64,000 nucleotides of DNA from Candidatus Micrarchaeota archaeon (GCA_016212525.1 JACRGD010000007.1:15112-79111); one strand, 5' to 3'; positions 29,570 through 64,000 are shown, counted from the stretch's first letter. The notes: generated by a model from the letters alone, not told the origin. Numbers and translations are program-made.

Positions 29570-29623
29570 TAATAAAAATCGCTTCGCTCTCAATTAAATC
29601 CATAGCTTCGCTCTGGCCTTAAT
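29570..29623. repeat. two direct copies of AGAGCGAAGC in the tRNA-Ala 3' trailer (GAGCGAAGC family)
   Basis: minus strand reads CCAGAGCGAAGCTATGG ... GAGAGCGAAGCGATTTT. Confidence 0.45.
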
Positions 29624-29695
29624 TGGACTCAGGGGGACTCGCACCCCCGGCCTCTCGGATGCAAACCGAGCGCTCTGCTGCTGAGCTATGAGCCC
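29624..29695 (-). tRNA. tRNA-Ala (anticodon UGC)
   Basis: acceptor GGGCTCA/TGAGTCC with the G3:U70 alanine identity pair, anticodon loop TTTGCAT, T-arm GGGGG-TGCGAGT-CCCCC (G at position 55 instead of the near-universal U), discriminator A. Confidence 0.75.
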
Positions 29696-29752
29696 ATTGA
29701 TACATGCCAGAAATAAATCTGAACAGATAAGTGGACAATAATAAACATAGAA

Positions 29753-46185: not shown

Positions 46186-46259
46186 AATACGGTAAAAAGA
46201 TTTATATAGAGTAAGGTAATACGTAAAATAGATGATTATTCTGGAATATATTACGGAAT
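46186..46259. promoter_or_regulatory. three evenly spaced TACG-core repeats flanking a TTTATATA box
   Basis: TAATACGGTAAAAA, TAATACGTAAAATA and TATTACGGAATAAT centred about 31 bp apart; TATA box ~28 bp upstream of the ATPase ATG; lies immediately downstream of orc1/cdc6. Confidence 0.4.
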
Positions 46260-46309
46260 AATACCAATAGATACAAGGTAAATACTAGCGACAAAAACAA
46301 ACCAGAGGT

Positions 46310-47539
46310 TTAGTTCACTTTCAAAAACAGGACAGAATCCAAAACAGTTTGTATGTCTTTTGCATTCTGACCAATCTGGATAAGGGTCGTCTGACCGCGG
46401 ATTCCTTTGCCGCTGGGTTTAGTTGCAATAAGACCTAAAACCTCCAATTCAGAGAGATATTCCTTATACCATCTAAGACTCCTTGCACGCTTTCCGACCT
46501 TATTACAGACGCGCTCATACTCTTCATAGGCCTCACCGGAAAACAGATAGCAAGGAGCAGAATAACCATTTTGCTCGGAATTGTTTTCTAATGACAAGCG
46601 TGAGTATTTGCTGCCCTTAACTGCCAGAGAAGCTATCGAATAGAGCGTGAGTTGATGCATCTCGGGAAGAGTAACGATCGTCTCTTTTGTAAGATCTATT
46701 TCGACGCGTTTGCGTGCAGATTCGACATCTCGGTCAGTTATCTTGTTTCGTTTTTCAAAATCGGCAATCTCACCGGCTTTGTTTATGAGTTTTAGGGCAT
46801 ATCGGGCATCACCAGTCTCCTGGGAGGTAATGGCCGCGGCCAGATTTATTGCCGAGGAATCAACAGATTCTGGGGCAAATCCTTCTTTTGATCGCTCAGA
46901 TAAGATGCGCTGAATTTGCTCTGCTGTGTAAGGTGGAAATACCATCTCCGTTTCATAGAGACTGCTCTTGCTTCGGGGGTCAAGAGTATCTTTGAAAGAG
47001 AGTTTGTTTGAAATACCAACAATACTTACTCCACCATAGCTCAGTTCATCGTTCGATCGGGTAAGAGTGTAGACGAGTTCGTCCAGATCCTTTATCATAT
47101 CGATCTCATCTAGGACGATAATCATCTGCTTGCCATCGGAAACGAGTTCGAGAAGTTTTTCATAAAAGAAAGGAAGGCCAAAACCGGATTTATCGGCTTC
47201 TGGGCAGTAATTCTTGAGTATTTTCTGGAGAATCCGATATCGGGAATTGTAAATCCTGCAGTTGACATACTGAATTAGCGCCTTTGTATCGCCCGAGCCT
47301 TTGGTGGAATTTTCAAAATCCTCCATTATGCGCTTCATGCAGCAGGTTTTTCCAGTTCCGGTTTTACCATAAAGTATGATATTTCTTGGTTTTTGTGATC
47401 TTAGGGCGGGTGAAAGAACTGAAACGATCTGGTTGATCTGATGGTCCCTAAAGGGCAAATCTTTTGGAACATAATGAGGCGAGAGAACACTCGGATTTCT
47501 AAAAATAGTTCGTTTGGACATCACATCCTCAAATAACAT
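46310..47539 (-). CDS. cdc6: Orc1/Cdc6 replication initiator
   Basis: 409 aa; Walker A GKTGTGKT, Walker B DEID, C-terminal winged helix. Confidence 0.9.
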   Translation of the reverse strand: MLFEDVMSKRTIFRNPSVLSPHYVPKDLPFRDHQINQIVSVLSPALRSQKPRNIILYGKTGTGKTCCMKRIMEDFENSTKGSGDTKALIQYVNCRIYNSRYRILQKILKNYCPEADKSGFGLPFFYEKLLELVSDGKQMIIVLDEIDMIKDLDELVYTLTRSNDELSYGGVSIVGISNKLSFKDTLDPRSKSSLYETEMVFPPYTAEQIQRILSERSKEGFAPESVDSSAINLAAAITSQETGDARYALKLINKAGEIADFEKRNKITDRDVESARKRVEIDLTKETIVTLPEMHQLTLYSIASLAVKGSKYSRLSLENNSEQNGYSAPCYLFSGEAYEEYERVCNKVGKRARSLRWYKEYLSELEVLGLIATKPSGKGIRGQTTLIQIGQNAKDIQTVLDSVLFLKVN

Positions 47540-48550: not shown

Positions 48551-48615
48551 AGACTAAACGAAGGACAAAAATATAAAGAATTAGGCTTGGGATTGAAAAA
48601 ATAGAAAAGAAAGAA

Positions 48616-49497
48616 TTATTGGCAAAGATGGGTGTTCTGGTTGCAGACTTCACCTACATTGCAGTTCTGATTATCATTGCAGAATCCGACCTTGGGAGTG
48701 CATGCATGAGACTCGCAAATCTGATAGGATGCATCACAATCTGCAGTTGTCGCACATTTACCTGCGCTGGGAGTGCATCGGTGAGTTGAGGTCGAGCAGT
48801 ATTCCCAGTCAGTACATTCATTGTCAACACCGCAGAAACCAACCTTTGCGACGCATTTGTTTGTTCGTCCATCGCACTTGGCCCAGGTCTTATCGCAGTT
48901 ATTATCGTTTATGCAGAAACCGGCCTTTGGTTTGCATTGGTGAGTCTTTGGTTCGCAAGTCTGCCAGGTTGTGCAGTCTCCATCAAAGTCGCATCGATCT
49001 GGAAGATAGACACATTTACTCGATTGCTGATCGCAGCGTTTCCATGAATCACAATCAGTGTCTTTTACGCAGAAGCCGGGAGCAGGACCGCATCGGTGAG
49101 TACTAGGACTACAATACTCGACTACAGGCTGGCATTGAGTATCGCCATCGCAGAAACCTGGACCGGGTCTGCAATATTTTGAGGAATCACACACCTGCCA
49201 GCTTTGACAATCGACATTAGTACCACATCGACCGGCAGTATAGATACATTTGTAGGATTTGCCCACATCACAGGTCAAAAGAGAAGCATTGCCAGTATTA
49301 TTGCCGCAGTCTGCAGGAGACTCGCAGTAGCCAGGTAGTTTCATGCATGTTTTTGTACCAAGATTGCATGACTGCCATGGCCGACAATCCTTATCTGCAC
49401 TGCATGAAGGAGCAGTGTTAATACATCCAAAAATAAATATTGACGCCAAAAGAGCAGCTAATATAAGTAATCTCATAAAGGAGATATTTCCGGCCAA
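48616..49497 (-). CDS. secreted protein of seven tandem Cys-rich modules
   Basis: signal peptide, then ~7 repeats of about 38 aa with pattern G(F/Y/R)C-x2-D-x-DC-x2-W-x2-C-x6-C-x3-PG; 48 Cys in 293 aa. Confidence 0.7.
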   Translation of the reverse strand: MAGNISFMRLLILAALLASIFIFGCINTAPSCSADKDCRPWQSCNLGTKTCMKLPGYCESPADCGNNTGNASLLTCDVGKSYKCIYTAGRCGTNVDCQSWQVCDSSKYCRPGPGFCDGDTQCQPVVEYCSPSTHRCGPAPGFCVKDTDCDSWKRCDQQSSKCVYLPDRCDFDGDCTTWQTCEPKTHQCKPKAGFCINDNNCDKTWAKCDGRTNKCVAKVGFCGVDNECTDWEYCSTSTHRCTPSAGKCATTADCDASYQICESHACTPKVGFCNDNQNCNVGEVCNQNTHLCQ

Positions 49498-49593: not shown

Positions 49594-50271
49594 CTAGAGG
49601 CGTCTCCAGCGATCAAGGGTTGCAAGAAGCATTCCAAAATCGGAAATAGTCGCATCTGCTTTGGACGAGCGACTATTTGCATATTTTCCAGAAAGTATGC
49701 GAATAGTTTTCATGCCGGCTTTCTTAGCTGGAATTATGTCGGCATCTTCTCGATCACCAATCATTAGCGACTCTGTTGGCTTGGCCCTTAGATTCGAGAG
49801 AATGCGCGTGAAAAAGAGTTCATCTTTGGAGCGACCGACATCTTCTGAAACAAAAACATCATCGAAAAAAAGTGCTATACTTAATCGAATGAGTTTATCC
49901 CATTGTTTAATCGACGTACCGTTTGTAGCGACATATAAATTGTAACCCTTTTGACGCAGATTAAGAAGAGTGCTTGGAACCTGAGGATAGGGGGCGATTG
50001 TTGTCTTGGTATCGTGATAAGCAGCGATAGCAGCAGAAACGAATTTAGCACTTTTTTTGATTTTTAGGGATTTGCACAAATCATCAAAATGATGAGTGTA
50101 ATTTGAACCCTTTTTTTGGATTATTTTTGAAAGAGAATGCTCGAGATCGGAATAGGTTGCATCTAAACCCATGCCAATCATTGCATTAATTGCGTTTTTT
50201 CTGGCCAAGGAACTAAAATCAGTAGTCGGAAAGAGGGTATCATCGATATCGAAGAAGATATTTTTTATCAT
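49594..50271 (-). CDS. HAD-superfamily hydrolase
   Basis: 225 aa; motif I FFDIDDTL, motif II TNG, motif IV GDREDADI. Confidence 0.7.
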   Translation of the reverse strand: MIKNIFFDIDDTLFPTTDFSSLARKNAINAMIGMGLDATYSDLEHSLSKIIQKKGSNYTHHFDDLCKSLKIKKSAKFVSAAIAAYHDTKTTIAPYPQVPSTLLNLRQKGYNLYVATNGTSIKQWDKLIRLSIALFFDDVFVSEDVGRSKDELFFTRILSNLRAKPTESLMIGDREDADIIPAKKAGMKTIRILSGKYANSRSSKADATISDFGMLLATLDRWRRL

Positions 50272-50302
50272 GAAAAAATAGAAAGAAAGAAATTAATAAA
50301 CT

Positions 50303-52801
50303 CTATTGATTGGACTCGACAAAGATAGTTGGAGTGTATCCTGTGCCAGTCTGTCTTGGAGAACGTGGTCTTCGTGCTCCTGCATCAGAAGGTACTGGGG
50401 CAGGAACTGCCGCCACTGGAACAACTACAGGAGCTGGAACCACTACCGGAGGCGCAACAACTGCAGGAACTGTGGTATCAGCAGGAACTGAAGAATCTAC
50501 TTGTACCGATGCATCTGCGCTTGGCAAAGGTGCACCTATTGGAGCGCCCAAGGGAACAGATCTACGCGGAGCAGATTCAACAACTGCCGGAGTTGGATGT
50601 GTTTGCGGAGTTCTTGTAGATTTCCACCAAATACCGAAAACACCACCGCCAAGTATTCCAACAACCACAGCAGCTACCCAGGCTTTAAAGGTTCTTGGTC
50701 TGGATGGCAACGCGGATGGATCAACCTCGACAGTGCTTTCTGGATCGACTATAGGGTCGGCGGGAGCTGATGGTGAGAAATCAGCCCTCAAAGTAGTCCC
50801 GTCTCGTGGGCTAGGTCTTTGGGCAACCGGTTCCGAACCAGTATTAGATGTGCCACGAACAGCTCTCGAGGGAGCACCTACAGCAAAGACCTCATCATCC
50901 CAAGGACCAGCCTTAGGGGATGCACGAGTTGTGGGTGGACTAACCGGAGCGTGCGGACCGCTCACGGATGCAGGACCCGGAAGAACACCACCTGGACCGC
51001 GTCTAGTTGCAGTATCTGATGCAACAGGAATCGGAGCAGGAGCCCTTGCTGGAGGCTCAGAACCAAAGGCACCACCCATCATCAGCGTACCACTTGGTGA
51101 TGGAGGTTCACGAAGCACTGGAACAGCTGCCTCATTTGAATTGAAAAGATTTAACCTTAGAAGTCTTCCAGGACCCACTAAAACCTGACCAGATAGTTTA
51201 TCAGTAACGTTAAACATATCCGAACGTCCGGTAATATAGTTCAAATGGAAGGGAGTTGAATCATGCCCATAAGTAACTACGTCAGAATCAGTGGCTATCA
51301 CAACCCGAGCACCAGTAGAATCAGAAAGCACATAGGGAACATTTGGAGCAATATCAGCCATGGATTTAGTTGCATTGACTACTTGCGCACCCCTAAGAAA
51401 TTCGATATTTGAACCCTCATCTGAGTTAGTAACTCGAACCACATCAGAACCAACTTTGGCATATTTAGTTTCGCCAATTTCGACCTTCAAAAAAGCATCG
51501 ACCCTGCCTCCAGAGAAAACAACAAACTCATTAGAACCATACCTAACCAGATTGAGACTAGCAGAAAGAGCAACTACAGTATTGGTATCTTCTAATTTGC
51601 ATTCATAAACAGAAGGACAACCTGATTTCTCTGCTACTTCTTCCAAATTTAGAAGACGAACTGAAACCTTATCAGGAAGACGTCGTGAAACCTCAACTGC
51701 ATAATCGTTACCCATCAAAGATAGTTTTGCATATCGAACTTCTTGGAAGTCAATGGATACCAACTGGTCAGGAGAGCCTAAAGCACAGACCTGAACTTCA
51801 TGGGCATTTGAGAAATAAACGTTCAAAGCAGGACCAAAATTCCTAGATTCACCAACAACCAAATCAGATTTGTTTGGCCGCTCAACTAGACAGTATGAAC
51901 CCTGCGAATCAACATATTCAGAAGTATAGACAACCCCTCTTAAAAGAGCCAAACCAGCTACATCATATTGAACAGAACCGCCGGGAGTGTCTGAAACATC
52001 AAAGTGATGGTCGCCACTACCAGTATAGACCAAATCAACATATCCCGAAGGAGATGCTGCCCTACCATCGCGTACAGGAGTTACCGTAGATGCAGTAGGT
52101 AAAGCAGGAGGAAGTTCATTTTCTGTCCAGACCGAATAATAACGAGTACCGGAGTTTTCCCATCCCAAAACATACGCATCAACACCTGCAGCCATGGCCG
52201 GAGGAACATAGGAAGCAAGTTTAGCTTCAAATACGGCCGGATGATCAGGAACAGAAGCAAGGAAATCCCCGTCTAATTCAGTTATAGTCACATCAGACCC
52301 AGAAGTATCAACATAGATACCCAAAGGCAATCGAACTCCATTTGTATATATGTTAGAGTCAGGAACAATTTCGGCCGGACCGTATCGATGAACAGTTCGA
52401 GTAACATCGACACTAAGTTCACCATTCTTAACAGTAAGCGTGGCATCAAAACCAGTATTACCATGACGAACAAGAATAGACGCTGAATCATTATTAGAGT
52501 TAACATCAAGTTCGGTTCTTGGAATTAGATCATCTAGATTCTTCAGGTAAAAAGGTACATAATTATTGGCAGAATCACGAAGTTCTACAGATCCGACTCC
52601 AGATGAAGTGACATTAGAACAAACAAGCTTCAAATCACCCGGCAAAGTACAGTATTCTTTTACTTCCAAGGATTTGCGAGTTGTTTCTGGACCAGCTGCA
52701 CGAGCAGCAGCAGCTAGAGGCGGAGGCAATGCCACATTACCACCAGTAACATGCGCTGGAACTTCAGAAGCAATTCTTGCACCTATTAATTTTTTTGCCA
52801 T
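50303..52801 (-). CDS. large membrane-anchored protein (single C-terminal TM helix, Pro/Val/Ala-rich tail)
   Basis: 832 aa; TM helix WVAAVVVGILGGGVFGIWW near the C-terminus followed by PAVVAPPVVVPAPVVVP repeats; no known domain. Confidence 0.6.
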   Translation of the reverse strand: MAKKLIGARIASEVPAHVTGGNVALPPPLAAAARAAGPETTRKSLEVKEYCTLPGDLKLVCSNVTSSGVGSVELRDSANNYVPFYLKNLDDLIPRTELDVNSNNDSASILVRHGNTGFDATLTVKNGELSVDVTRTVHRYGPAEIVPDSNIYTNGVRLPLGIYVDTSGSDVTITELDGDFLASVPDHPAVFEAKLASYVPPAMAAGVDAYVLGWENSGTRYYSVWTENELPPALPTASTVTPVRDGRAASPSGYVDLVYTGSGDHHFDVSDTPGGSVQYDVAGLALLRGVVYTSEYVDSQGSYCLVERPNKSDLVVGESRNFGPALNVYFSNAHEVQVCALGSPDQLVSIDFQEVRYAKLSLMGNDYAVEVSRRLPDKVSVRLLNLEEVAEKSGCPSVYECKLEDTNTVVALSASLNLVRYGSNEFVVFSGGRVDAFLKVEIGETKYAKVGSDVVRVTNSDEGSNIEFLRGAQVVNATKSMADIAPNVPYVLSDSTGARVVIATDSDVVTYGHDSTPFHLNYITGRSDMFNVTDKLSGQVLVGPGRLLRLNLFNSNEAAVPVLREPPSPSGTLMMGGAFGSEPPARAPAPIPVASDTATRRGPGGVLPGPASVSGPHAPVSPPTTRASPKAGPWDDEVFAVGAPSRAVRGTSNTGSEPVAQRPSPRDGTTLRADFSPSAPADPIVDPESTVEVDPSALPSRPRTFKAWVAAVVVGILGGGVFGIWWKSTRTPQTHPTPAVVESAPRRSVPLGAPIGAPLPSADASVQVDSSVPADTTVPAVVAPPVVVPAPVVVPVAAVPAPVPSDAGARRPRSPRQTGTGYTPTIFVESNQ

Positions 52802-52803
52802 AG

Positions 52804-54171
52804 TTAAGCACCCTCTTTAGGAACTATAGATATAAGTGTCTCGTATGCATCACGAATACTAGCAGCCAGATCAGCCATTGCATCAGGCTTAAGAACATGG
52901 GGAATCTGAACATGTTCAACTGGAAGAAGTTCATCTGTCTTCCTTGGATTAGGAACATTATCAGATGGAACGAACAAAGCATCCCCATAAGATCCCACAA
53001 CCAAAGCTGCAATTCTCATCATAGATGCAGAATTACCATAGGTCAAACTTCTTGCAGCTGCCAGTCCGGAATCTGGATGATTAGATAAAAAGTCTTGGAA
53101 CTGATCTCCATGAGAACGACCTCTACCATCATCAAGTGCGATTTCTACCAGTTGGCGATGTAACTCTAAATCAGAAAGATGTGGATACTCATGAACCATT
53201 TGAGGAGTTACAAACCTAGCTGCAATGGCCATAACATGTGCAACGGTTGTGGTTGAAAGCTGATCATAAAGAGTCTGCAGATCGCCAACTGATCCGGAAG
53301 TAATTGCAGCCGCGGCACTATCATATGCAGCAGGAGCAACAGCAGTTGAGACGTATCGATGAACATCAACAGCAAATGCAGGATCAAGGATAATTGAAAC
53401 CGCTCTATCTAGATTCATATAAGAAGCAACAGCACATAAATTAACATGATATTGCAACTGGTCAGAATAATTTGGATCTGCCGGATTCATACCAAGAAAC
53501 ACAGGAACGTGTGGATCGAGAGCTTGGGCCAAAGCCAATTTTCTTTCAGAAGCAGCAACCTGAGCCTTAAGATCTGCGACTTGGGTTACTAGAGCATCGT
53601 GTTTATCGACACGAGCAACTACTTCTCGAACAGCCTTTGCTACAACAGCCAAACGACTTTTTGAAGCTCCATCACGAGCAACAGCTTCAGTTCTCGTAAG
53701 TGCGGTACTAAGAGTATCGACACGAGCTGCTATATCGGAAACACGAGAAACTGCCTGAGTTACGGCAACAGGAACTTTAGGAACTACGACGTCATTTACA
53801 AACTCGCCAAATACAGATCTTGCTGTTATTGCTTCTTCAGTTCGCTCCTCAGCTGGTGCTCGCATAGCAGCGACTCCGGTTCTTGCAATGGCAAATAGAG
53901 CAGCGCCCAAAGTACTACGAACACTTCGTTCATCCTCAGAAAGATCAGTAGCACCAACCAAACGAGTAGCTGCAGAAACAGTGAGAGAAATTACACTAGA
54001 GGCAAGAACACCTCTCATGCTTGGAACAGATTTATCATCTGCATCAATAGAATCTGAACCACGAACATCTCCTGCAGCTCGAGCAAATGTCTTTACTAAT
54101 TTTAGAGCATCGTTGAACTTACCTATTTCCTTCGGATTCGTAATAACCGGTTTTGTTGTAGTAGCACTCAT
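52804..54171 (-). CDS. Ala-rich hypothetical protein
   Basis: 455 aa; no known motifs; start is 12 bp after the stop of the upstream gene. Confidence 0.55.
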   Translation of the reverse strand: MSATTTKPVITNPKEIGKFNDALKLVKTFARAAGDVRGSDSIDADDKSVPSMRGVLASSVISLTVSAATRLVGATDLSEDERSVRSTLGAALFAIARTGVAAMRAPAEERTEEAITARSVFGEFVNDVVVPKVPVAVTQAVSRVSDIAARVDTLSTALTRTEAVARDGASKSRLAVVAKAVREVVARVDKHDALVTQVADLKAQVAASERKLALAQALDPHVPVFLGMNPADPNYSDQLQYHVNLCAVASYMNLDRAVSIILDPAFAVDVHRYVSTAVAPAAYDSAAAAITSGSVGDLQTLYDQLSTTTVAHVMAIAARFVTPQMVHEYPHLSDLELHRQLVEIALDDGRGRSHGDQFQDFLSNHPDSGLAAARSLTYGNSASMMRIAALVVGSYGDALFVPSDNVPNPRKTDELLPVEHVQIPHVLKPDAMADLAASIRDAYETLISIVPKEGA

Positions 54172-54183
54172 ATTTCATCCCCC

Positions 54184-56562
54184 CTATACAGATTTTATTT
54201 TATCAAGATCAGTTTCAGTTAATGCCTCTGAATTGACAAAGATTGCTTCACCAAAGGCAACAAAAACAGTCCTAAACGCAGTTGCAAATGCAGCAGGATC
54301 GGATTTAGAACCCTCCAGACCAGTCATACGCGTAGCAACCTGGGCAGCATCAATATCCCCGTGAGAAGTTGCAACTTGACCAAATGCCCTCAATTTGCCA
54401 AATAATCCATCGACCGGACTACCACCATTGGTTGGTTTTTGGAGTTCGGTAATCAGTGCAGCAGGAATTTCTGTTCTTCCACCTGAACTGGAATTGGATA
54501 AGATCTTAGCCAATCGAGCAGAAGTAAAGAACCCATCAACTGCAGTTGCTAATGCAGTTACCGGAGTCATATCGACAACTGGAGCCGGAGCGGCTTTTAC
54601 AGAAGGATCTGAAACCAACTGATCTCCAGTAACTTCAACTTTGAAACGTGGTTTGTTTGATTCAGAAGTTCCCAGATAAGTGACTTTTACGGTTCGTTTT
54701 GTGTAACCACCAGTTTCGAAAGTGTGAGACTCACCAACTACAAGCGAGTTCTGGGTTTTACCAACTCGCTCGGTTCGCGCAGTTGGATCAAAAGAACTGC
54801 CATTTGTCTTGGCATAAGTATAACCTAATGCAGTAAGTACACCGGCAGGATCAAAATCCTTGGATTTTACTTCCAAAGACAAATCAGCACGTCCAGGAAT
54901 GGCCAAACGAACCCAGTCAGATCTGGAAGCAGAAGCAACATCGAAGACCATTTCGCAAGTAGATGGTTCGGTCGTTATTACAGGACCAGATGGCGCTTTA
55001 ACAGCGGCCGGAGCAACAGCTGACTTAGCAGGTTCGGGTGCTCTTGCAGCTTCGGCTCTTGCTTCAACCCGAGCAGGAGCAACTGGAGGTGCTGCTAATT
55101 CAGATGGAGCTGGAGTTCGTACCGCTGCAACTCGTGCTTCGAATTCTTGGATTCGACGCTGTAAGTCAGCTTCGGCCTCACTAAGAGCTCGCTCTCGCTT
55201 ATCCAATGCGCCCAATCTTTGGTTAGCAGCTTCTAATCGAGCTTCAGCTTCAGAAGCAGCAGTTAGAGCAGCAGATTTTCTTGCATCAGCCGAATTAGCA
55301 GCTTCAACTGCAGCAGTCTTTCTTCCTTCCTGTTCATCGGCTTCAGCTTGAGCAGCACTTCGTCTTAACTCTGCAGCAGAAGCAAGACCACTCATTTGAG
55401 TCAAACTCTCATTCGCTTCATCAATTTTAGCAGTAACAGCAGACAAAGCAGATCGTTTTTCACCAAGTGCAAGCCCGAGAGCAGCATCTGATGTTCGACC
55501 TTCAAGTAACGTTCTTTCTAAATTTTCGACTTCAGCCTTAAGAGCATCACGTTTGCCTTCCAAACTAGCAACCTCAGAAGTAAGAGCAGTTGAAGGTCTT
55601 AATGGAGCACGTGGAGGTTTTGGTTTTTGAGGTATCTCAACTGGAGCAAGCATCTGAGAAACATCCAATGGCATGTCAATAGATGTAACTTCAATTGCCA
55701 TCACCGCAGATACAACTGCATCAGAACGTACTGATTCTGAACTTGGCAAAGGAGCCGCAGATGGAAGAGAAGCCAAAAACTCAACAGGAGAAACTACATC
55801 TGGATAATTGCCAGCAGGTAATGGTATTTCTGATCCGGTAAGTGGATTGTTGAGCAAGTCAGAAACATCCTTAATTGAAGAGGTGGCACCATCTAAAGCA
55901 GCTACAGCAGCAGCAGATGCAGCGAGTTGAGCCTCTAATCTTCTACGAACAGTATCAGTTTTTTTTATGGCAGCAGCAACTTCGCCAACAAGTCTTTTCT
56001 TTAACTCACTAACCTCGCCATCGAGTTCTAATCTTCGAGCATCAAGAGCATCACGATCTTTTTCATAAGCAGCAGAAACAGTTTCTCTTTCTCTTGCAAG
56101 TGAAGATTCAGCAGCGATCAAAGCATGAAGAGTCGCAGTGGCAGAAGTAAAAATTTCAGAACCTAAATCAGAGAGAGCCGTGCCGGAAATAGACTGAGGT
56201 TGGGAACTTCCCTCAACATTCAGTACAAAAGTAGCATCGATAGCAGCAGCAACAAGGCCGGGAAGTCTATCTGCATTGAATAGATCAGTGTCTACCTCCA
56301 CAGGACCTGATGAAACAGAACGTATTGGAGTTGTGGGTTTTGGAACGCCTTCGGGAAGTTGTTCTCTAACGGCCAAAACGGAATTGATTGCGGGGCTTAG
56401 TCTAGCTGCCAATTCAGCAGCTGCAGCCATGGCACCAAGACGAACACCATCTTCCAAAAGACCAGTTAAATGTTCATTTAGCTTTGCGCCTGAACCCCTA
56501 GGAACATATTTAACAGCAGACGACGGACCTTTCAAAACCATAGACGTATTTTTTTCTGACAC
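54184..56562 (-). CDS. Ala-rich coiled-coil protein
   Basis: 792 aa; about 350-aa central region of heptad-like Ala/Glu/Arg/Leu repeats (SMC-like coiled coil) flanked by non-repetitive domains. Confidence 0.55.
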   Translation of the reverse strand: MSEKNTSMVLKGPSSAVKYVPRGSGAKLNEHLTGLLEDGVRLGAMAAAAELAARLSPAINSVLAVREQLPEGVPKPTTPIRSVSSGPVEVDTDLFNADRLPGLVAAAIDATFVLNVEGSSQPQSISGTALSDLGSEIFTSATATLHALIAAESSLARERETVSAAYEKDRDALDARRLELDGEVSELKKRLVGEVAAAIKKTDTVRRRLEAQLAASAAAVAALDGATSSIKDVSDLLNNPLTGSEIPLPAGNYPDVVSPVEFLASLPSAAPLPSSESVRSDAVVSAVMAIEVTSIDMPLDVSQMLAPVEIPQKPKPPRAPLRPSTALTSEVASLEGKRDALKAEVENLERTLLEGRTSDAALGLALGEKRSALSAVTAKIDEANESLTQMSGLASAAELRRSAAQAEADEQEGRKTAAVEAANSADARKSAALTAASEAEARLEAANQRLGALDKRERALSEAEADLQRRIQEFEARVAAVRTPAPSELAAPPVAPARVEARAEAARAPEPAKSAVAPAAVKAPSGPVITTEPSTCEMVFDVASASRSDWVRLAIPGRADLSLEVKSKDFDPAGVLTALGYTYAKTNGSSFDPTARTERVGKTQNSLVVGESHTFETGGYTKRTVKVTYLGTSESNKPRFKVEVTGDQLVSDPSVKAAPAPVVDMTPVTALATAVDGFFTSARLAKILSNSSSGGRTEIPAALITELQKPTNGGSPVDGLFGKLRAFGQVATSHGDIDAAQVATRMTGLEGSKSDPAAFATAFRTVFVAFGEAIFVNSEALTETDLDKIKSV

Positions 56563-56677
56563 TCATCCCACCTCAATACTTAGCGAACCACGACGTTTAT
56601 CGGGGCTCGCAACATAAACATTATTGTTATTATCAGTATAAATATGTGTAATCCTCTATTTAAACCTTTCTAACACC

Positions 56678-59600
56678 TTAGAAGTGCCTAAATTCGAAGT
56701 TAAGACGCCCACCAGTTCCAAACTCCATACTCAATTGAACATGCTTGTTTGCTACATCAGGGCATACGCCCGAAGCATATAGTGCATTATCACTCGCACG
56801 GACAAATGTATTGACCGAAGGGTTAAAGGAACCCATACCCAGATGGTTGGAATATACAAATACACCACCTTCAGAACCGGTCATACCATACAAGCTAAGT
56901 TTAGTTGCAACATCCGATTCGTTAACTCCGACTCTACCCGCACCGCAGGTTAGAGTCTGAAGAACACCACCCTGAATAAAGGAAACCGCAATGCTTACAG
57001 TCACTGGATCAGAACGCCAGAGTTTAGCGTTGAGCTCGTTAAGCTGTCGGTCTGCAAGACCAACTATACCAATGACATCGTTCATTGATCCCACCCAGCC
57101 CAATGTTGCAGCCATTTCAAATGAAGATTTTATCATTCCTACAGTCTGTGCACAGAAAACACTATCGGGTTGTCCAGATGATGCGTGCACCACTAAGTCC
57201 AGATTGATAACAGGAAGGGCATCAATAGTCAACGAAAGACGCGAACGATCTTTGAAGGGTGAATTATCAAAGTCGGCAGAAGAATTTCTTGGAGTGGTGG
57301 AGAATCCAACTCGCTCGACTGGGACATAGCCCATAAATTCCAAAAGACAAATGAGTTCGAGCTCAGATGCTGCTGCACCAGCAACAGAAACATTATTCTC
57401 ATATCTGACTTTGGTAAGGGCAGCAGTAACACTGGAAGAATTTGCTTTAATTAACTCGAACCCAGCATCGACCGGGTTAAGAGAAGGTGCATAATTTGCA
57501 ATACCAGTCAAAAACACATCCTGATAGCCAGTCTTATACGAAGCAAATTCAGAGCTCTTTAAGAAGGCAAGCTTCTCTGCGAGACTTGGTTCATCAAGCG
57601 CACATAAGGAATACAGTCTTTCTTTTGCCAAGCGGGCTCGCTCATATCGGGTAGCCGCAGGAACACTCGCATCACCACTACGGATTCGCTTTGCTGATAC
57701 AAGACTAAGAAGAAATTCACGCTTTGCCGGAGGCATATCTAGGAATTCCTGAATTTGAGCCGCTGAAACATCCGAAGAAGCTCCCGAAGCAGATTCACCT
57801 TTGTTTGTAGCCAGAACAACTGCAATCAAATCCTTTTCAGATACAGACATTTCAGCAATCATTCGCTCTGGAGTCTTTCTTCGAACTATTGCAAGGGCAA
57901 GCTCGGATAAAGTAGAATCGAATCGCTCGGTAGGCACACTAGCTGCAACGTTTGCAAGAACATACATCGCATCCATAGTAGAACTATAATATGGACCAGT
58001 TAGACTAGGTCTCCCACGTACATAGCCATCTTTTAAGGCGGCAACATAGCGTCTTGAGAGGGTTTGTGCACGATTAACCTCACGAGACTCGGACATCGGA
58101 GCAAAAACATAGGCCACTGCAGAGGAAGGAGGGAATGATCCATCAGTTACGCCAGCAAGACGGGCAACAATATTCATAATAGATCGGGCACTATCGGCAC
58201 GAACTGGAAGATGAACCGCAGCTGAGCTAGTAAGGACTTTTCCACCAGCATAGGGAGCTTCCAGATCGCCTAAAAGTGAATCGAACGAGGAAACTGCAGC
58301 ATCCAGTCTAGTTCTATAGGCAAGGCGTTTAGTTTTAGCAGCAACCCCAAGCAGAGGTTTGTTAAAGACGCCCGCAAGATCAGGATTCTTAACGATCGCT
58401 TCATTATTCATTGCAATAGCCAGTGCGTATCGCGGATTCTGGGCATAGTCAAGTCCGAAAGCAGAAACATCATAAGCATGCAATTTATCGAAACCAGCAT
58501 TGATGCGAACACTGGCAGAAAGCAGTGCTGAAATATCGGAATTAAATTCTGCATCGGCAAGAGAATGCTCAGTGGGCCCAACAATACCAGTTGCCCAGCC
58601 CTCATAAACAGCTGAAGGAGTCATTGTTCCGATTGTTCCCGCGTGTCGATACCATTTATCTTCATAACGATAAGCAACAAAAGAGTAAACTTTTGCGGAT
58701 TTAGAATCGGTTTTGGGTTTTACTACCCGAACCGGAACAACTGGAACCTTAGTTCCGTTTGGAAGAATCATAACCAAAGGTTTTCCTATTGAAACAGTTT
58801 TACCGTTGACAGAGAGGTCATTATTAGAATCAAAGGTAAAGCAGTCTGCATTTTGGGTTGCTAAAGTTGCAAGTTTTGCCTCTTCACCAGACCTCCAGCC
58901 GCCATCTGCAGGAGTTTCTCCAAAGTCAGCATGCATAAGAATTGAGAATCTCTGAGCTACCCCTGCACGCGCCTGTTTATAGGTCGCATCAAGAGCAGAG
59001 CGAACTGCACCCGTATTTGGAGTCTGGGATTCTAGCATCTTAAATGCAACTAAATAATCTGCACCAGTTGCCTTGGCCATGAATTCAGCAGCAAGACCAA
59101 AATTAGTCTGCCTGAAAACGGAATTTCTCAATTTCAAATCAAAGCTGGATGGGGTAGTACGAGCAATTGGATTGTAATCATGAATAATGGCACATAGTTG
59201 AGTGTAGGCAGGAGAGTTTGGAATTGCTTCTGCTGCTGCATCTGCCGAAAGGCGATCTACCCGATTTACAGCCAGTGCAGCTTCTTCGTATGCTTCAACG
59301 GCCGCAACGAACCGGTCGACAAATGGCTTGGATTCAGGCGCAGTAAAATGAGTCCTTACGAAATCAATAACATCAAGAGAATCCTCATTCGCCGCACCAT
59401 TAAGAAGGAAGTTAGATCTAAAGTGTTGCGACTCGACAATTGGAACTGTTGCAGCAGCAAGCTCTTTGGCTTTTTGAGTAAGAGCGGCTTTGAGTTTTGC
59501 CTGATCTGGAGATAACCGAGTTATATTAGTACGAATATCAGAACGGGCACTGGCATAACCATCAGCGACCGGGGTTGTTCCATCATTAACTAAAATAGAA

Positions 59601-60817
59601 ATAACACATTCTAATTTTTCAGAAAGCGATCCCGAACTGGGATATCTTCGGTGAAGTACATTATTCGCAACGTTGTCAGTAGCGTTTGAGGTAAACCGAT
59701 GTTGACCTCGCATATGAGCATCAAGAGAAGCAACTACTGCGGAAGCAAAAACAGCCAGATCGAAATTAACAGCACGACCACTAGTACTTTCAGCAACTAC
59801 ATACCCGGGTTCAGAAAGAAGCGATCCATCGGAAGCTCGCTTTGTGAGTTTGAAACCAAGGAAATTTCTCGCGGCAGAAGTTGTCATTTGCTCTGGAGTA
59901 ATAGGGGTTGCAGCTACTGGTTTATGAGCAGGACGGGCAACTGGAGCTGGAGCGGGTGCTACGGGAGCTGGAGAAACCGGAGCTGGCGCGGGAGAAACGA
60001 ATCCAGTCGGAGGATGCAAAACATCAACACCAGGTGGGGCAGGAGACGGAGATCTAGGAGCAGCAGGCAGAGTAGGTTGCTCGAAATCGATGACTTCGGG
60101 AGGAGATGCAGGCGCAAACGAACCAGACCCGGAAGGAACGACAATAGAACCAGAATTAGAAGCGGAAACTGGATGTAATGAACCTGTAGTAGCTGCATCA
60201 TCAACTAAAGTATCGGGCTCAGCTGCAGGTTCCGAACCAGGTCTTCGTCTTCGCACATCAGTAGCTTCATCATCCCGAACAACGCGGACTGGAAGTCCTT
60301 CTCCGGGAATTACCGGAGCACCAGGAACTCGATCCACACGAAGAAGAGAAACGCCTGGGCTGGCAGGTTCATCTAGAACCGGAGGTTGCTCAGCTGAAAA
60401 CGGAGGAGTAAATGGAATTGGAGGACGAACGACATAAGGATCAGATGGAGTTGCCGCACGATTTGGTTGTGAAAACCCGACAAGACCCATGACAAGCCCA
60501 AGTCCGGAATTGGGACTTATAGGCCCAGCTGGAGATAATGAAGATGCTGGAGGAACTAAAGAAGCACGAGCAGCATCATCAACCGCAGTAACATCATCAG
60601 GACCCAGATCAACAGGAAGAGGCGGCGGTCCTCGAGTTTCTTGAGGAGTAGGGGAAACGGGAACTGGCGCAGTAGAGGGAGGGTTTGCTTCATGCAGAGA
60701 AGCTGCCTTTGCAGAGCGAATCTGACGAACAAAAGAATCAGTTGCAGCTCTAAATGGATTGAGTGGATGACCATACCTTACATCACGACTATTTCTATAT
60801 CTAACCATAAATATCAC
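56678..60817 (-). CDS. giant hypothetical protein with Pro-rich disordered N-terminal region
   Basis: 1379 aa; first ~300 aa Pro/Ser/Ala-rich (PAPAPVSPAPVAPAPAPVARP); the remainder is not repetitive and has no known motif; start overlaps the upstream gene by 4 nt. Confidence 0.6.
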   Translation of the reverse strand: MIFMVRYRNSRDVRYGHPLNPFRAATDSFVRQIRSAKAASLHEANPPSTAPVPVSPTPQETRGPPPLPVDLGPDDVTAVDDAARASLVPPASSLSPAGPISPNSGLGLVMGLVGFSQPNRAATPSDPYVVRPPIPFTPPFSAEQPPVLDEPASPGVSLLRVDRVPGAPVIPGEGLPVRVVRDDEATDVRRRRPGSEPAAEPDTLVDDAATTGSLHPVSASNSGSIVVPSGSGSFAPASPPEVIDFEQPTLPAAPRSPSPAPPGVDVLHPPTGFVSPAPAPVSPAPVAPAPAPVARPAHKPVAATPITPEQMTTSAARNFLGFKLTKRASDGSLLSEPGYVVAESTSGRAVNFDLAVFASAVVASLDAHMRGQHRFTSNATDNVANNVLHRRYPSSGSLSEKLECVISILVNDGTTPVADGYASARSDIRTNITRLSPDQAKLKAALTQKAKELAAATVPIVESQHFRSNFLLNGAANEDSLDVIDFVRTHFTAPESKPFVDRFVAAVEAYEEAALAVNRVDRLSADAAAEAIPNSPAYTQLCAIIHDYNPIARTTPSSFDLKLRNSVFRQTNFGLAAEFMAKATGADYLVAFKMLESQTPNTGAVRSALDATYKQARAGVAQRFSILMHADFGETPADGGWRSGEEAKLATLATQNADCFTFDSNNDLSVNGKTVSIGKPLVMILPNGTKVPVVPVRVVKPKTDSKSAKVYSFVAYRYEDKWYRHAGTIGTMTPSAVYEGWATGIVGPTEHSLADAEFNSDISALLSASVRINAGFDKLHAYDVSAFGLDYAQNPRYALAIAMNNEAIVKNPDLAGVFNKPLLGVAAKTKRLAYRTRLDAAVSSFDSLLGDLEAPYAGGKVLTSSAAVHLPVRADSARSIMNIVARLAGVTDGSFPPSSAVAYVFAPMSESREVNRAQTLSRRYVAALKDGYVRGRPSLTGPYYSSTMDAMYVLANVAASVPTERFDSTLSELALAIVRRKTPERMIAEMSVSEKDLIAVVLATNKGESASGASSDVSAAQIQEFLDMPPAKREFLLSLVSAKRIRSGDASVPAATRYERARLAKERLYSLCALDEPSLAEKLAFLKSSEFASYKTGYQDVFLTGIANYAPSLNPVDAGFELIKANSSSVTAALTKVRYENNVSVAGAAASELELICLLEFMGYVPVERVGFSTTPRNSSADFDNSPFKDRSRLSLTIDALPVINLDLVVHASSGQPDSVFCAQTVGMIKSSFEMAATLGWVGSMNDVIGIVGLADRQLNELNAKLWRSDPVTVSIAVSFIQGGVLQTLTCGAGRVGVNESDVATKLSLYGMTGSEGGVFVYSNHLGMGSFNPSVNTFVRASDNALYASGVCPDVANKHVQLSMEFGTGGRLNFEFRHF

Positions 60818-63030
60818 CGATTGGACCTCTCAGAAATTTTCCGAATTTGTCTTTGTATCTGATCGGAAATTGATGAGGGATTAGCAGAATCATACATTGA
60901 GCGGATGTCACAAACTGGAAGTAAAAGTTCTGGAGGAAGTAAAAGTAAATCTCCTTTATAGTAGGAAGAAAGATAATAGAGCGTCCGGAACAACACGCGG
61001 TCAGTTCCAGAGGGAAGAGAGGTTTCTAAATCAGATGGAGCTGGAATTGAACCAAAAATATCCCAAAGAGAAACAGTTGTACCTCCAGGCGCTAACCCGC
61101 TTAGGTAGGCAAGTGAAACTGTAGCCCGGAAAAGAGCAGTATGTAAATCAGATCCGGTTTTACCACGAATAAGGGGCATATATGGTTCATAAATCTGTGG
61201 ATATGCATCAGCAGAAGTCGCATAGCTGAAAAGATCTCGGGCGATAACAGACGCAACAGCGCAGAAGGGACCGTTGAAGCGACCGTTGGGGTAAAACTCC
61301 TGGACTATAAAAGCCTCGAAGGATAGATCAGAAGAACTAGTAGCAAGGTACCCATAGTTTCCTTTAGATTTGGAAGTACCAATCTGGAGTGAATTAGAAA
61401 CAGTCAAAGGCAACTCGAATTCCCTAATTGGAGCAGGGGCAGTAACTTCGCCCCGTGAGAGGGCAGTTGCAGTAGAATATGCGTTTCTAAGGATATCAAT
61501 TCGACGAAGATTACAGGACATGTCGCGCGTGTCTGCTGCACCTCTCTCGCCAACTACATAGCGCAAATGCTCATCATCTGAGCCAAGCGGATCGATAACT
61601 AAAATTCCACCCACTGAATTGGTATAGAGTGTCGCCAGCCCGCCATCAACGCAAATTACCCGGCCGCGAGTGCGATCGGTTCGGCCTTCATGAACATCAA
61701 GAATCTTTCGCGCTCTTCTATGGCCAACATAAAAAGTATATGAACCCATTTGGGTGAGCCACGATGAAAGAGCAGAATCAAGAGACCATGCAGCAGGAAG
61801 TTTTCCCGGTAGTTGAACGGGTTCACTGTGATACATCATCGAATAGTCCCTCTTAGTTACAGCCAGAGCATGAGAACGGGTTTTAGAAGACACATCTATA
61901 TCAGCCCAGGAACAGAAAAGTGCAGTTGTACCTTTAGAATCGCCAAGCAAGTTTGCAAAATAATCATCTAATGCATCAATAGAATCGACAGAAAGTACCG
62001 GCCCTCCGTGGATAAAGAGAGCGTCATCGATCCGTATTGCTGCCTTGGTAGAGCGAACAAAATCCAATGTTCCATCCCTCTCCATTTCCTCGCATGCAAA
62101 TCTCCAGAGGTCCATCTCGCCATGATCAACAAGGTATGAAAAAGAGGATCGCTCACGAAGGAGAAAGTTTGCTAGCGAACGAGGATCATAACCGATCAAA
62201 GCGCGGGTTCGATCACATGCCGCTTTATCTTCATCATAGGCATCTTTGAATTTTTTCTCATACGAGCGAAGAATTGAATCCAGCGTATTGGAATCGAAAA
62301 GCTTTCCGATACCAGAATCGTTTATAGCTTTATCAGCAGGACCAAATAATTTGAATTCCTTCCAGGCGGAATTGAGATGACTTAGATCCAAAACAACGCG
62401 AAGTAGATATGAAAAATCATCAGCATTTGCAAAGATTTCGCGGACCTTATCAAGTGGAGTTGTCCTAAGGAGTTCGACTAAGCGCAGGAACATTGCCTCG
62501 TGATTTCCCCGAAGAGTATGAATGCGAATTTTGCCATCGGTTTCATCAGCCTGACATTGGAGATCCTGTACAAAGTCTAATACGTCCATGCCTTCTGTCC
62601 CGCGATCAACATAATCGCCCGCAAAGACGATTTGGGTTCCTTTGGGCAGATCAGTATTCAAAGAATATCGCTCGAAATAGGGGGCAGTGGGGTCAGATCC
62701 CAGATTGGCCACGATGACACCGGCTTCCATAAGTTCGCGAACTAACTCTTTTGCGTCTCCCTGGACATCTCCTATGACATAAATACGGGAGGCGTTGGAA
62801 ACTCGATCAATAGTTTGACCCGATCGGTAAGTAGGTTCTATTTTATTTAGATGATCAGCATAGGGATTGATTTTAGAATTTGTAATTTTGGGCTTCGCGT
62901 CTTTTCTGGTTCTCCAATAAGCCCTATAAGCACAGATTGCAGGAGTGTCAGCAATACCAGCACCGGAAATGTTAAGACTTCGATAAAGCCGACCATAAGG
63001 ACTAGTATGCTTCAACAATCTTCCACCCAT
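60814..63030 (-). CDS. PPP-family Ser/Thr phosphatase-like metallophosphoesterase fused to a ~400-aa unknown C-terminal region
   Basis: 738 aa; GDVQGD...GDYVDRG...GNHE motif series of calcineurin-like/PPP phosphatases in the N-terminal third. Confidence 0.65.
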   Translation of the reverse strand: MGGRLLKHTSPYGRLYRSLNISGAGIADTPAICAYRAYWRTRKDAKPKITNSKINPYADHLNKIEPTYRSGQTIDRVSNASRIYVIGDVQGDAKELVRELMEAGVIVANLGSDPTAPYFERYSLNTDLPKGTQIVFAGDYVDRGTEGMDVLDFVQDLQCQADETDGKIRIHTLRGNHEAMFLRLVELLRTTPLDKVREIFANADDFSYLLRVVLDLSHLNSAWKEFKLFGPADKAINDSGIGKLFDSNTLDSILRSYEKKFKDAYDEDKAACDRTRALIGYDPRSLANFLLRERSSFSYLVDHGEMDLWRFACEEMERDGTLDFVRSTKAAIRIDDALFIHGGPVLSVDSIDALDDYFANLLGDSKGTTALFCSWADIDVSSKTRSHALAVTKRDYSMMYHSEPVQLPGKLPAAWSLDSALSSWLTQMGSYTFYVGHRRARKILDVHEGRTDRTRGRVICVDGGLATLYTNSVGGILVIDPLGSDDEHLRYVVGERGAADTRDMSCNLRRIDILRNAYSTATALSRGEVTAPAPIREFELPLTVSNSLQIGTSKSKGNYGYLATSSSDLSFEAFIVQEFYPNGRFNGPFCAVASVIARDLFSYATSADAYPQIYEPYMPLIRGKTGSDLHTALFRATVSLAYLSGLAPGGTTVSLWDIFGSIPAPSDLETSLPSGTDRVLFRTLYYLSSYYKGDLLLLPPELLLPVCDIRSMYDSANPSSISDQIQRQIRKISERSNR

Positions 63031-63229
63031 CCCCCATTCTGTTTATATTAATAGTAAGTTATGGAAAGTGTTTATTAAGGGATGTGCTCGACCACGATAG
63101 CGCAGGAAACGATTAAATACATAGTCTCAGACGATGGGAAGCTCAAAAGACGGAAAATTTAGGTGAATAAAAATATTTGTTACTTTTTAGTGCCAAAATA
63201 GATTCAATTTGGATTAAAAAAGGGACAAA

Positions 63230-64000
63230 TTATTCCAAAAGAAGAGTTTTTATCTGATAATCACCAATTAAGATAGTTTCAAACTGATTAAATTCGCTCA
63301 ATTGAATTTTTGTCTTTGAATTTCCTCCAATTTCAATCACAATTTTCTCTCCATTAATATTGACTATATAGTCGGGAGATTTTTTAGCTCCCTTTAGAGT
63401 ATTAACCACTCCACCTATCGATTCTAAACCAAATAAAACTGATTCTTCCCGTATGCTTCCGATATCAAAAGGAACGTGCAATTGCCTGCATATGGCAACC
63501 CTCAAATTAGGATGAGTAAATAATATTTTAGGTTCTGCACGGATAAGTTTTGCCCCCCTGGCATATGGAAGAATTAACCGGATCACTTTCATTTCTTCCA
63601 AAACTTTCACAATTTCTGCCACAGATGTTTTTGAAATACGCAGATTATTTGATAAAGAGGAAAGACTTAGTTCACCTGGCGGCGAAGTTGCAAGTCGTAT
63701 TAAGAGCGATTCCATGGCATGAGTTTTTTCTAACGATAATTTTGTTATGGAAACACTATCTTCCCTTACAGATTTACGAATTGTATTGAAAATAGAATTG
63801 AGTGCATCGTCTTTATTATAATTTAAAGAAACAGGAAACCCACCGATTTCAACATACTCTTTATAGGCACGTTCAACATCATCGTTTTTTGCAACAAACT
63901 CAAGTGATTTGTCCCGATCGATCCAAAGATTTTTGGCCTCTTGCTCTTTTGCGTATTTAATATACAAAAATTCTCTTAGAGTCATAGGCAGGATAGTGTA
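63230..64000 (-). CDS. COG1373/DUF4143-family ATPase, C-terminal part (gene continues beyond right window edge)
   Basis: ORF 63230..63985 has an open frame upstream to the window end (YTILP precedes the first Met); DUF4143-like domain; second member of this family in the window. Confidence 0.6.
   Translation of the reverse strand, partial: YTILPMTLREFLYIKYAKEQEAKNLWIDRDKSLEFVAKNDDVERAYKEYVEIGGFPVSLNYNKDDALNSIFNTIRKSVREDSVSITKLSLEKTHAMESLLIRLATSPPGELSLSSLSNNLRISKTSVAEIVKVLEEMKVIRLILPYARGAKLIRAEPKILFTHPNLRVAICRQLHVPFDIGSIREESVLFGLESIGGVVNTLKGAKKSPDYIVNINGEKIVIEIGGNSKTKIQLSEFNQFETILIGDYQIKTLLLE

Follow-up and report, generated by a model that had tools for sequence, protein, structure and literature searches.

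Little is known of the molecules through which DPANN archaea, whose genomes measure roughly a megabase, depend on their hosts; orphan hypothetical proteins are common in metagenome-assembled genomes (MAGs) of these archaea. Lineage-specific proteins to which no function has been assigned are typical of the group and are suspected of being related to symbiosis (PMC8204110; PMC6642349). Like these DPANN-specific families without annotation (PMC8204110), the protein of 1379 amino acids (aa) with which the present work deals has no functional annotation. Its gene lies on the minus strand of a stretch of 64,000 nucleotides (nt), in the following called the window, from a Candidatus Micrarchaeota archaeon (GCA_016212525.1 JACRGD010000007.1:15112-79111). 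An original prediction, made from the sequence alone, had described an orphan protein with a proline-rich N-terminal region and had likened it to cell-surface or virion-associated structural proteins.

Several described systems come close to this locus in one respect or another. In the SlaA/SlaB pair of Sulfolobales, SlaA is the large outer protein and SlaB a stalk anchored by a transmembrane segment; both have signal peptides and beta-rich folds, and known archaeal surface-layer (S-layer) proteins are beta-rich. The 1379-aa protein resembles SlaA in being large (146 kDa), acidic (pI 6.2) and poor in cysteine, and in being encoded in one operon with a stalked partner that is anchored in its C-terminal part. 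However, it has no signal peptide, no S-layer domain and no enrichment of sequons, it is predicted to be helical, and its operon contains three further genes. Tape-measure proteins of tailed viruses are long and helical, and a proline-rich N-terminus of 300 aa is not among their features. With these and other long helical proteins of tailed viruses, the 1379-aa protein has in common that it is the longest open reading frame (ORF) locally, mostly alpha-helical in a low-confidence model, rich in alanine and with few or no homologues, whereas no tail, capsid or terminase genes accompany it and it has neither a PHROG match nor a relative in IMG/VR. The product of the gene immediately upstream, but not the 1379-aa protein itself, can be compared to PPP phosphatases (NinI of phage lambda, the Shewanella enzyme 1V73/2Z72 and PP2A): it displays the motifs GDxxDRG, GNHE, HGG and GH in the right order, and it differs by a deviating motif I, an insert, a C-terminal extension and the lack of a full-length homologue. 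The SPEARE proteins of Nanohaloarchaeota are large, are encoded in very small symbiont genomes and have no functional annotation, all of which also applies here, and the 832-aa operon partner has its transmembrane helix towards the C-terminus as most of them do; unlike the 1379-aa protein, however, SPEARE proteins contain protease, laminin-G adhesion and restriction-endonuclease domains, and homologues of them occur in several DPANN lineages (PMC6642349).

A genuine gene, second in a five-gene operon

The 1379-aa protein is the product of a genuine protein-coding gene of the chromosome of a DPANN archaeon of the Micrarchaeota, and this gene is the second of a tightly packed operon of five genes. 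The operon covers 12.7 kb (63030..50303, minus strand), with all genes on one strand and spacings of -4, 115, 12 and 2 nt between consecutive genes (Table 1). The deduced protein is identical in sequence to MBI5223256.1, which is encoded by the MAG of a Candidatus Micrarchaeota archaeon on a contig of 377,554 bp, and, as had been predicted, it is the largest ORF of the window, the next longest being leucyl-tRNA synthetase with 919 aa. For the base composition of the region, a frame of 1379 codons would be free of stops with a probability of about 1e-29, each of the other five frames is interrupted by 42-123 stops, and the G + C content is periodic by codon position over the whole gene, amounting to 0.60, 0.50 and 0.29 at the first, second and third positions (GC1, GC2 and GC3), respectively. 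The periodicity is also present in the proline-rich first 310 codons, in which the frame of the gene has 0 stops and the two alternative frames have 9 and 25. For these reasons, the ORF is not a chance feature. Its start codon is ambiguous: a GTG at 60817 overlaps the stop of the upstream gene (GTGA) and is preceded by GAGGT 7 nt upstream, whereas the start used by NCBI is an ATG at 60808, which leads to a protein of 1376 aa.

The window as a whole is an ordinary archaeal chromosome segment with genes for MCM, leucyl-tRNA synthetase, Nop56/58, triose-phosphate isomerase and Orc1/Cdc6, a histidine biosynthesis operon and three tRNA genes. Run SRR12113407 was also assembled independently by Logan, and this assembly shows the locus in the same form from the histidine operon through the five-gene operon, junctions included, so that a chimera is unlikely. 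That the ORF might be an artefact of assembly or annotation, or a decaying ORF without function, is barely conceivable; it is known from a single sample, but two independent assemblies agree, the frame would hardly be open by chance, codon periodicity extends over its full length, and five consecutive long ORFs are intact and spaced as in an operon.

The first gene of the operon encodes a 738-aa protein that likely belongs to the PPP fold, as judged from a PF00149 score of 35.2 bits (gathering cut-off 21.5), a match to phrog_246 (NinI-like Ser/Thr phosphatase, 3e-13) and best PDB matches to the cold-active phosphatase from Shewanella (1V73/2Z72) and to PP2A. Its motifs read GDVQG, GDYVDRG, GNHE, IHGG and VGH. 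Motif I is thus GDVQG instead of GDxHG, that is, a metal-ligand histidine is replaced by glutamine; in addition, about 160 aa are inserted between GNHE and HGG, and the C-terminal 260 aa or so are without relatives. A Mre11/SbcD-like nuclease was considered for this protein and rejected, as both its motifs and its PDB matches point to protein phosphatases of the PPP type. The exact 738-aa sequence is absent from a collection of 15 billion proteins in which its four operon neighbours are present, and the gene call in the Logan assembly has 734 aa, so that the deposited annotation probably uses a different start or none.

The 792-aa product of the third gene has its coiled coils at about aa 150-230 and 330-500, a beta domain at aa 534-615 and, after that, a C-terminal domain. 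Its matches to SMC, Rad50, SbcC, LmuB and JetC are weak (E 1e-5 to 0.1) and comprise only coiled-coil residues of about 160-480, and no Walker A motif is visible in the protein. An SMC/Rad50/SbcC- or Lamassu-like identity was discarded on the grounds of these coiled-coil-only matches and the missing ATPase motif. The 832-aa product of the fifth gene consists of a beta-rich N-terminal part of about 560 aa, a proline-rich linker, a single transmembrane helix and a Pro/Val-rich C-terminal part of about 105 aa. Residues 534-615 of the 792-aa protein (54613-54975, minus strand) align with residues 238-322 of the 832-aa protein (51836-52090, minus strand) with 33% identity and a pairwise E of 7e-4, the alignment including a shared LVVGES-x-F motif, and a beta domain of about 85 aa may therefore be common to both proteins.

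An AT-rich intergenic region with a TATA-like element precedes the first gene and is presumed to be the operon promoter, and the TATA-box-like TTTAAATA in the gap between the second and third genes may be an internal promoter. The T-rich motif behind the fifth gene is likely to act as the terminator of the operon and the promoter of the next transcription unit. On the minus strand, this motif reads TAATT(C/T)TTTCTTT(T)CTATTTTTTCA; its two copies (48594-48618 and 50271-50295) are 84% identical, and each is situated directly past a minus-strand stop codon and ahead of the next minus-strand gene.

Table 1. Positions of the 1379-aa protein, its regions, the other operon genes and putative signals, counted from the first letter of the window.
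Feature	Coordinates	Strand	Remarks
Operon gene 2, 1379 aa from GTG	56678..60817	-	MBI5223256.1 / HY990_02445, hypothetical protein, Candidatus Micrarchaeota archaeon
Pro-rich N-terminal region of gene 2 product, about 310 aa, probably disordered	59891..60817	-	Short non-Pro islands between PxP/PAPAPV tracts
Predicted helical region, aa ~310-659, helices of ~10-25 residues	58841..59890	-	Low-confidence model
Predicted small all-beta domain, ~75 aa, aa ~660-735	58613..58840	-	Isolated model pLDDT 51.5, pTM 0.47; top PDB fold matches merely SH3/OB-like, E>0.3
Second predicted helical region, aa ~736-1169	57311..58612	-	Low-confidence model
C-terminal region, aa ~1170-1379, predicted strands and little helix	56681..57310	-	Lowest model confidence, no motif match
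Operon gene 1, 738 aa, phosphatase-like domain (PPP type, calcineurin-like) spanning aa ~80-470	60814..63030	-	Pfam, PHROGs, PDB
Operon gene 3, 792 aa, Ala-rich coiled coils and Pro/Ala linkers	54184..56562	-	
Operon gene 4, 455 aa, Ala/Val-rich, helical	52804..54171	-	MBI5223254.1
Operon gene 5, 832 aa, beta-rich, singleton	50303..52801	-	MBI5223253.1
Only transmembrane helix in the operon, gene 5 aa 707-727, AWVAAVVVGILGGGVFGIWW	50621..50683	-	Kyte-Doolittle value over 19 residues (KD19) = 2.0
TTTAAATA, archaeal TATA-box-like element in the 115-nt gap between genes 2 and 3	56657..56664	-	
T-rich 25-nt motif right after the gene 5 stop	50271..50295	-	Recurs at 48594-48618
199-nt AT-rich intergenic region upstream of gene 1	63031..63229	-	TATA-like TTAATATAAA at about 63051-63042

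The four genes at 50303-60817 are set apart from all other genes of the window by their base composition (GC1 0.60-0.63, GC2 0.46-0.52, GC3 0.22-0.29), and the encoded proteins contain 10-17% Ala, 8.5-13% Val, 2.5-4.7% Lys and 2.4-3.7% Ile. In the 1379-aa protein, Ala (13%), Ser (10%), Val (9%) and Pro (8%) are abundant and Lys (3.3%) and Ile (3.2%) are scarce when compared to the housekeeping proteins of this genome (about 8% each for the latter two), and to this extent the original remark that its composition is unlike that of housekeeping proteins was correct. The four operon products therefore have a common composition rich in Ala, Val, Ser and Pro and poor in Lys and Ile as well as proline-rich linkers, and their genes follow the synonymous codon preferences of the host. 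When only core genes on the minus strand are used for comparison, the relative synonymous codon usage (RSCU) of the operon correlates with r=0.86 (0.73-0.90 for the individual genes), and core genes left out one at a time gave r values of 0.49-0.78. A horizontal transfer from a GC-rich donor had been considered in view of the raised G + C content at 48-62 kb and an RSCU correlation of r=0.57 with all core genes, but this turned out to be a strand artefact that disappears in the strand-matched comparison. As the excess of G + C sits at codon positions 1 and 2 and GC3 is low, the raised G + C content reflects the amino acid composition and not a recent transfer. The operon genes have thus either resided in the lineage for a long time or come from an element with the same mutational regime.

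A strand asymmetry at third codon positions extends over the entire window (1-64000). The plus strand is A-rich throughout, and T3/(A3+T3) is 0.29-0.49 in genes on the plus strand and 0.52-0.70 in genes on the minus strand, so that plus-strand genes prefer A3 and minus-strand genes T3, whatever the gene. Such an asymmetry can fake a foreign codon usage when strands are mixed, and its polarity does not switch at Orc1/Cdc6.

Five proteins without detectable full-length relatives

None of the five operon products has a detectable full-length relative in the sequence collections searched. For the 1379-aa protein, all homology searches returned only the protein itself, one spurious match aside, and the orphan status originally proposed for it therefore stands. 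A word-seeded search of 5.8 billion proteins found only the query, and when residues 310-1379 were compared by phmmer with all of 1.84 billion cluster representatives, no credible non-self match resulted. P0002 (E=2e-9), the sole non-self match obtained with HMMER, is a repetitive PTPAP-containing protein of which 10 short stretches were aligned, and was treated as spurious. No relatives beyond the protein itself were encountered in GTDB genomes, IMG/VR or JGI metagenomes, tblastn against phage and plasmid records gave no match, and paralogues were likewise absent from the window. Neither its accession nor its locus tag nor the sequencing run is mentioned in any paper that we found.

The operon partners gave a similar picture. 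When 5.8 billion proteins were searched by word seeding, neither the 738-aa nor the 832-aa protein yielded anything full-length, and for the 738-aa protein metagenome contigs provided only two short fragments with phosphatase motifs. In the collection of 15 billion proteins, the 832-aa protein and the 455-aa protein each form a cluster with a single member; apart from this MAG, they occur only in the SRR12113407 assembly by Logan, and no relative of the 455-aa protein was found on GTDB genome contigs. Scans of IMG/VR viral contigs for close relatives of the four partners were negative. For the 792-aa protein, the search covered IMG/VR, PDB and four family libraries, and for this protein and the 455-aa protein the searches went less deep than for the others. 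As judged by sequence, the 1379-aa protein and its operon thus fall outside every known family, and what is new about them is the absence of relatives, not a mechanism. Since about 15 billion known proteins include no detectable full-length relative of the protein or its partners, any function proposed for it is a guess.

Most features that had been ascribed to the 1379-aa protein itself were recovered. Residues 1-300 include 61 prolines (20%), and a PAPAPV-type tract, SPAPAPVSPAPVAPAPAPVARP, is located at about residues 283-300. This N-terminal arm contains 14 [ST]P sites where 9.3 are expected, a marginal difference (p=0.05). The remaining 1070 residues or so are free of internal repeats, in agreement with the non-repetitive sequence of about 1000 aa described before, and likewise no Walker motif ([AG]xxxxGK[ST]) occurs and no window of 19 residues exceeds a Kyte-Doolittle value of 1.51, as would be expected for a protein without transmembrane helices. 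No known domain was recognised by comparison with Pfam, PHROGs, PADLOC, NCBIfam and PDB sequences, and when the protein was divided into six segments there was still no match in Pfam and PHROGs at E<=10. We also saw no catalytic-looking motif and no nucleotide-binding loop, and there are just 8 cysteines. The notion that the protein is not an obvious enzyme is borne out in so far as no enzyme family is detectable for it.

Since there are no homologues, structure prediction had to be performed without an alignment. A single-sequence AlphaFold2 model of residues 310-1379 reached a predicted local distance difference test score (pLDDT) of 34.8 and a predicted template modelling score (pTM) of 0.24, and residues 640-760 alone were modelled with a pLDDT of 51.5. 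At this low confidence, the protein is predicted to be mostly alpha-helical, with helices at about residues 350-650 and 740-1160, the small beta domain between them and strands in the last 210 residues or so. Foldseek searches of the PDB with the models returned nothing at E<=0.001; the faint SH3/OB-like matches of the beta domain of about 75 aa (Cren7, SSB) have E values of 0.2-0.5 and TM-scores <0.4 and are non-significant. A beta-helix or Ig-like fold, for which the original prediction had proposed to look, is not displayed by this low-confidence, mainly helical model, and sequence repeats are missing. Confident structural homology to an enzyme, which had been named as an observation that would speak against a structural protein, was not found in this fold search, which relied on low-confidence models only.

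A possible membrane-tethered assembly and competing explanations

Our preferred reading, which we consider possible rather than probable, places the 1379-aa protein in the cytoplasm as a non-enzymatic scaffold subunit of an assembly that is specific to the lineage and tethered to the membrane. Its disordered proline-rich arm of about 300 aa would serve as flexible spacer and docking region, whereas its largely alpha-helical body of about 1070 aa would join the coiled-coil 792-aa and the helical 455-aa proteins. The single-pass 832-aa protein, with proline-rich stalks on both sides of its transmembrane helix, would tether the complex to the cell membrane. The 738-aa PPP-type phosphatase-like protein, whose gene lies immediately upstream and, with overlapping stop and start codons, may be translationally coupled, might bind or dephosphorylate disordered arms rich in Ser/Thr-Pro and in this way control assembly. 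This reading is in agreement with the native chromosomal context, the operon spacing, the common composition and the native codon usage. It also agrees with a helical, though low-confidence, model of a protein in which neither catalytic or NTP-binding motifs nor family matches were seen, with one transmembrane protein among five, a coiled coil in the 792-aa protein and a possible common beta domain, and with the PPP motifs encoded upstream. Because the organism has a small genome and is an obligate symbiont, an envelope-associated, fast-evolving structure, for example at a site of host contact, would be the most plausible role. The more specific idea that the 12.7-kb operon encodes an unprecedented structure of one Micrarchaeota lineage, such as the cytoplasmic side of a symbiont-host contact apparatus, membrane-tethered, without detectable ancestry and controlled in its assembly by a PPP-type phosphatase acting on proline-rich arms, is an unlikely one.

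Several observations weigh against a scaffold. The operon is known from one sample only, so that conservation, the usual argument for function, lends no support. The structural model is unusable at its pLDDT of 34.8 and so says little against an enzyme fold. With glutamine in the place of the metal-binding histidine of motif I, the phosphatase-like protein may be inactive, and beside the marginal excess of [ST]P sites in the arm of the 1379-aa protein no such enrichment exists in the other proline-rich regions of the operon proteins. The topology of the 832-aa protein is ambiguous as well, charges being similar on either side of its transmembrane helix.

As a secreted S-layer-like protein or adhesin, the 1379-aa protein would be fixed at the surface by the membrane-anchored 832-aa protein much as SlaB fixes SlaA, and in favour of this one can cite that its mass, acidic pI, low cysteine content and hydrophobic, small-residue-rich composition fit loose S-layer criteria (10.1101/2021.04.28.441871), that an operon partner with beta-rich domains, a proline-rich stalk and a transmembrane helix near the C-terminus recalls SPEARE proteins (PMC6642349), and that surface proteins of DPANN archaea evolve fast. 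We nevertheless regard it as very doubtful. Inspection and hydropathy revealed no signal peptide in any of the five operon proteins, the N-terminus of the 1379-aa protein (MVRYRNSRDVRYGHPLNPFR...) being without a hydrophobic core, and its 7 N-x-S/T sequons compare with the 8.1 +/- 2.6 that its composition would predict. Secretion can be recognised in the sequences of this organism, since an obvious signal peptide is present in a 293-aa protein encoded about 7 kb away (48616..49497, minus strand). The S-layer protein of the cultivated Ca. Micrarchaeum harzensis combines S-layer domains that match TIGRFAM models with an N-terminal signal or transmembrane segment (10.1101/2021.04.28.441871), whereas the 1379-aa protein had no match to S-layer domains of the TIGR01564/TIGR01567 type in NCBIfam, which includes TIGRFAM-derived models, or in Pfam at whole-protein thresholds of E<=0.1 or 0.01. 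Moreover, its mainly alpha-helical prediction, albeit from a low-confidence model, differs from the beta-rich architecture of known archaeal S-layer proteins. The originally suggested resemblance to cell-surface proteins is hence not upheld, as signal peptide, transmembrane segment, sequon excess and S-layer domain are all missing.

An assembly inside the cell, which would account for the missing signal peptides, is expected not only for a scaffold but also if the operon were the structural or entry module of an uncharacterised archaeal virus or other mobile element fixed in the chromosome, with the 1379-aa protein as a virion or particle protein, for example tape-measure-like or an internal scaffold. 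The orphan nature of all five proteins, a composition more structural than housekeeping, the NinI-like best PHROG match (3e-13) of the upstream gene, the length and the mostly helical, low-confidence model of the 1379-aa protein, and AAA_14/DUF4143 ATPase genes at 44900-46177 and directly upstream of the operon (63230->64000) would fit, and yet such an origin seems unlikely to us. The surroundings of the operon consist of genes for a HAD hydrolase, Orc1/Cdc6, AAA_14/DUF4143 ATPases and two orphans, with no integrase, capsid, portal, terminase or replication gene adjacent, no tRNA gene within 20 kb (the nearest at 29623-29696) and no flanking direct repeats, and by synonymous codon usage the operon cannot be told apart from the host. 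The 1379-aa protein has no PHROG match even at E<=10 and is unmatched in phage and plasmid records, and close-relative scans of IMG/VR found nothing for the five proteins; without viral hallmark genes nearby, the earlier association with virions could not be maintained. The same two ATPase genes, which match the PADLOC candidate PDC-S01 and of which one borders the operon upstream while the other follows some 4 kb past its downstream end, lie with the operon in a region of variable appearance and lend themselves to another proposal, namely that the operon encodes a new system of antiviral defence or conflict in which the 1379-aa protein is sensor or scaffold and the metallophosphoesterase-like protein the effector. 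The calcineurin-like phosphoesterase domain, the weak LmuB/JetC/SbcC-like matches of the coiled-coil protein and the often patchy, fast-evolving nature of defence systems point in this direction; on balance, however, we consider it quite unlikely. In PADLOC-DB v2, the 1379-aa, phosphatase-like and 832-aa proteins had 0 matches, and the 792-aa and 455-aa proteins had only weak ones (E >= 8e-4, none significant for the latter), those of the 792-aa protein being confined to its coiled-coil stretch with no Walker A motif; the PDC-S01 match directly upstream belongs to a separate flanking gene (63230-63985). Neither nuclease, NTPase, protease, TIR, SIR2 nor similar domains are encoded in the operon, the phosphatase motifs are of PPP and not of Mre11/SbcD type, and a low-complexity, proline-rich and lysine-poor composition is atypical of known defence proteins. 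Finally, the body of about 1070 aa could be a highly diverged enzyme or nucleic-acid-binding machine with a fold invisible to sequence methods. Such methods do miss very remote homologues, the model is too poor for fold comparison, and the faint SH3/OB-like matches of the small beta domain could be taken as a hint, but all fold matches are non-significant, neither catalytic-looking motifs nor nucleotide-binding loops nor more than a few cysteines are found, and the operon partners with their coiled coil, linkers and membrane anchor look structural, which makes this possibility very unlikely.

An intact operon with codon usage fully adapted to the host genome and five orphan products points either to an extreme, fast-evolving lineage-specific machinery or to the remnant of a mobile element. 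If the products did form a contact or envelope apparatus, they would offer a molecular handle on the interaction of Micrarchaeota with their hosts; at present, the operon mainly represents well-documented protein dark matter.

Neighbouring genes in the window

The 293-aa protein of 48616..49497 starts with a textbook signal peptide that has a lipobox-like end, MRLLILAALLASIFIFGC, and continues with about eight Cys-rich repeats (CxxxxDCxxWxxC), which at the DNA level recur every 156-159 nt or so. It has a weak match to DUF5885 and is probably a secreted or lipid-anchored surface protein of Cys-knot-like type, as its sequence suggests.

The two AAA_14/DUF4143 ATPase genes, at 44900-46177 and 63230->64000 (both on the minus strand), encode proteins that are 23% identical over the DUF4143 part, and the second runs off the window. 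Together they bracket the Orc1/Cdc6 gene, two orphans, the HAD hydrolase gene and the five-gene operon, the copy at 44900-46177 being located two genes beyond Orc1/Cdc6. Rfam had no matches in the region of 41-64 kb. A further orphan ORF of 221 aa (41641-42306, minus strand) is interspersed among the histidine-biosynthesis genes, which are on the plus strand; its product contains 0.9% Lys and has no Pfam match. The Orc1/Cdc6 gene itself occupies 46310-47539 (minus strand), and a search of the adjacent intergenic regions and of the gap at 42.3-43.0 kb for repeats of the origin-recognition-box type gave nothing convincing. The cumulative GC skew flattens at about 44-50 kb, and an 18-nt AT-rich palindrome is present at 46235-46262.

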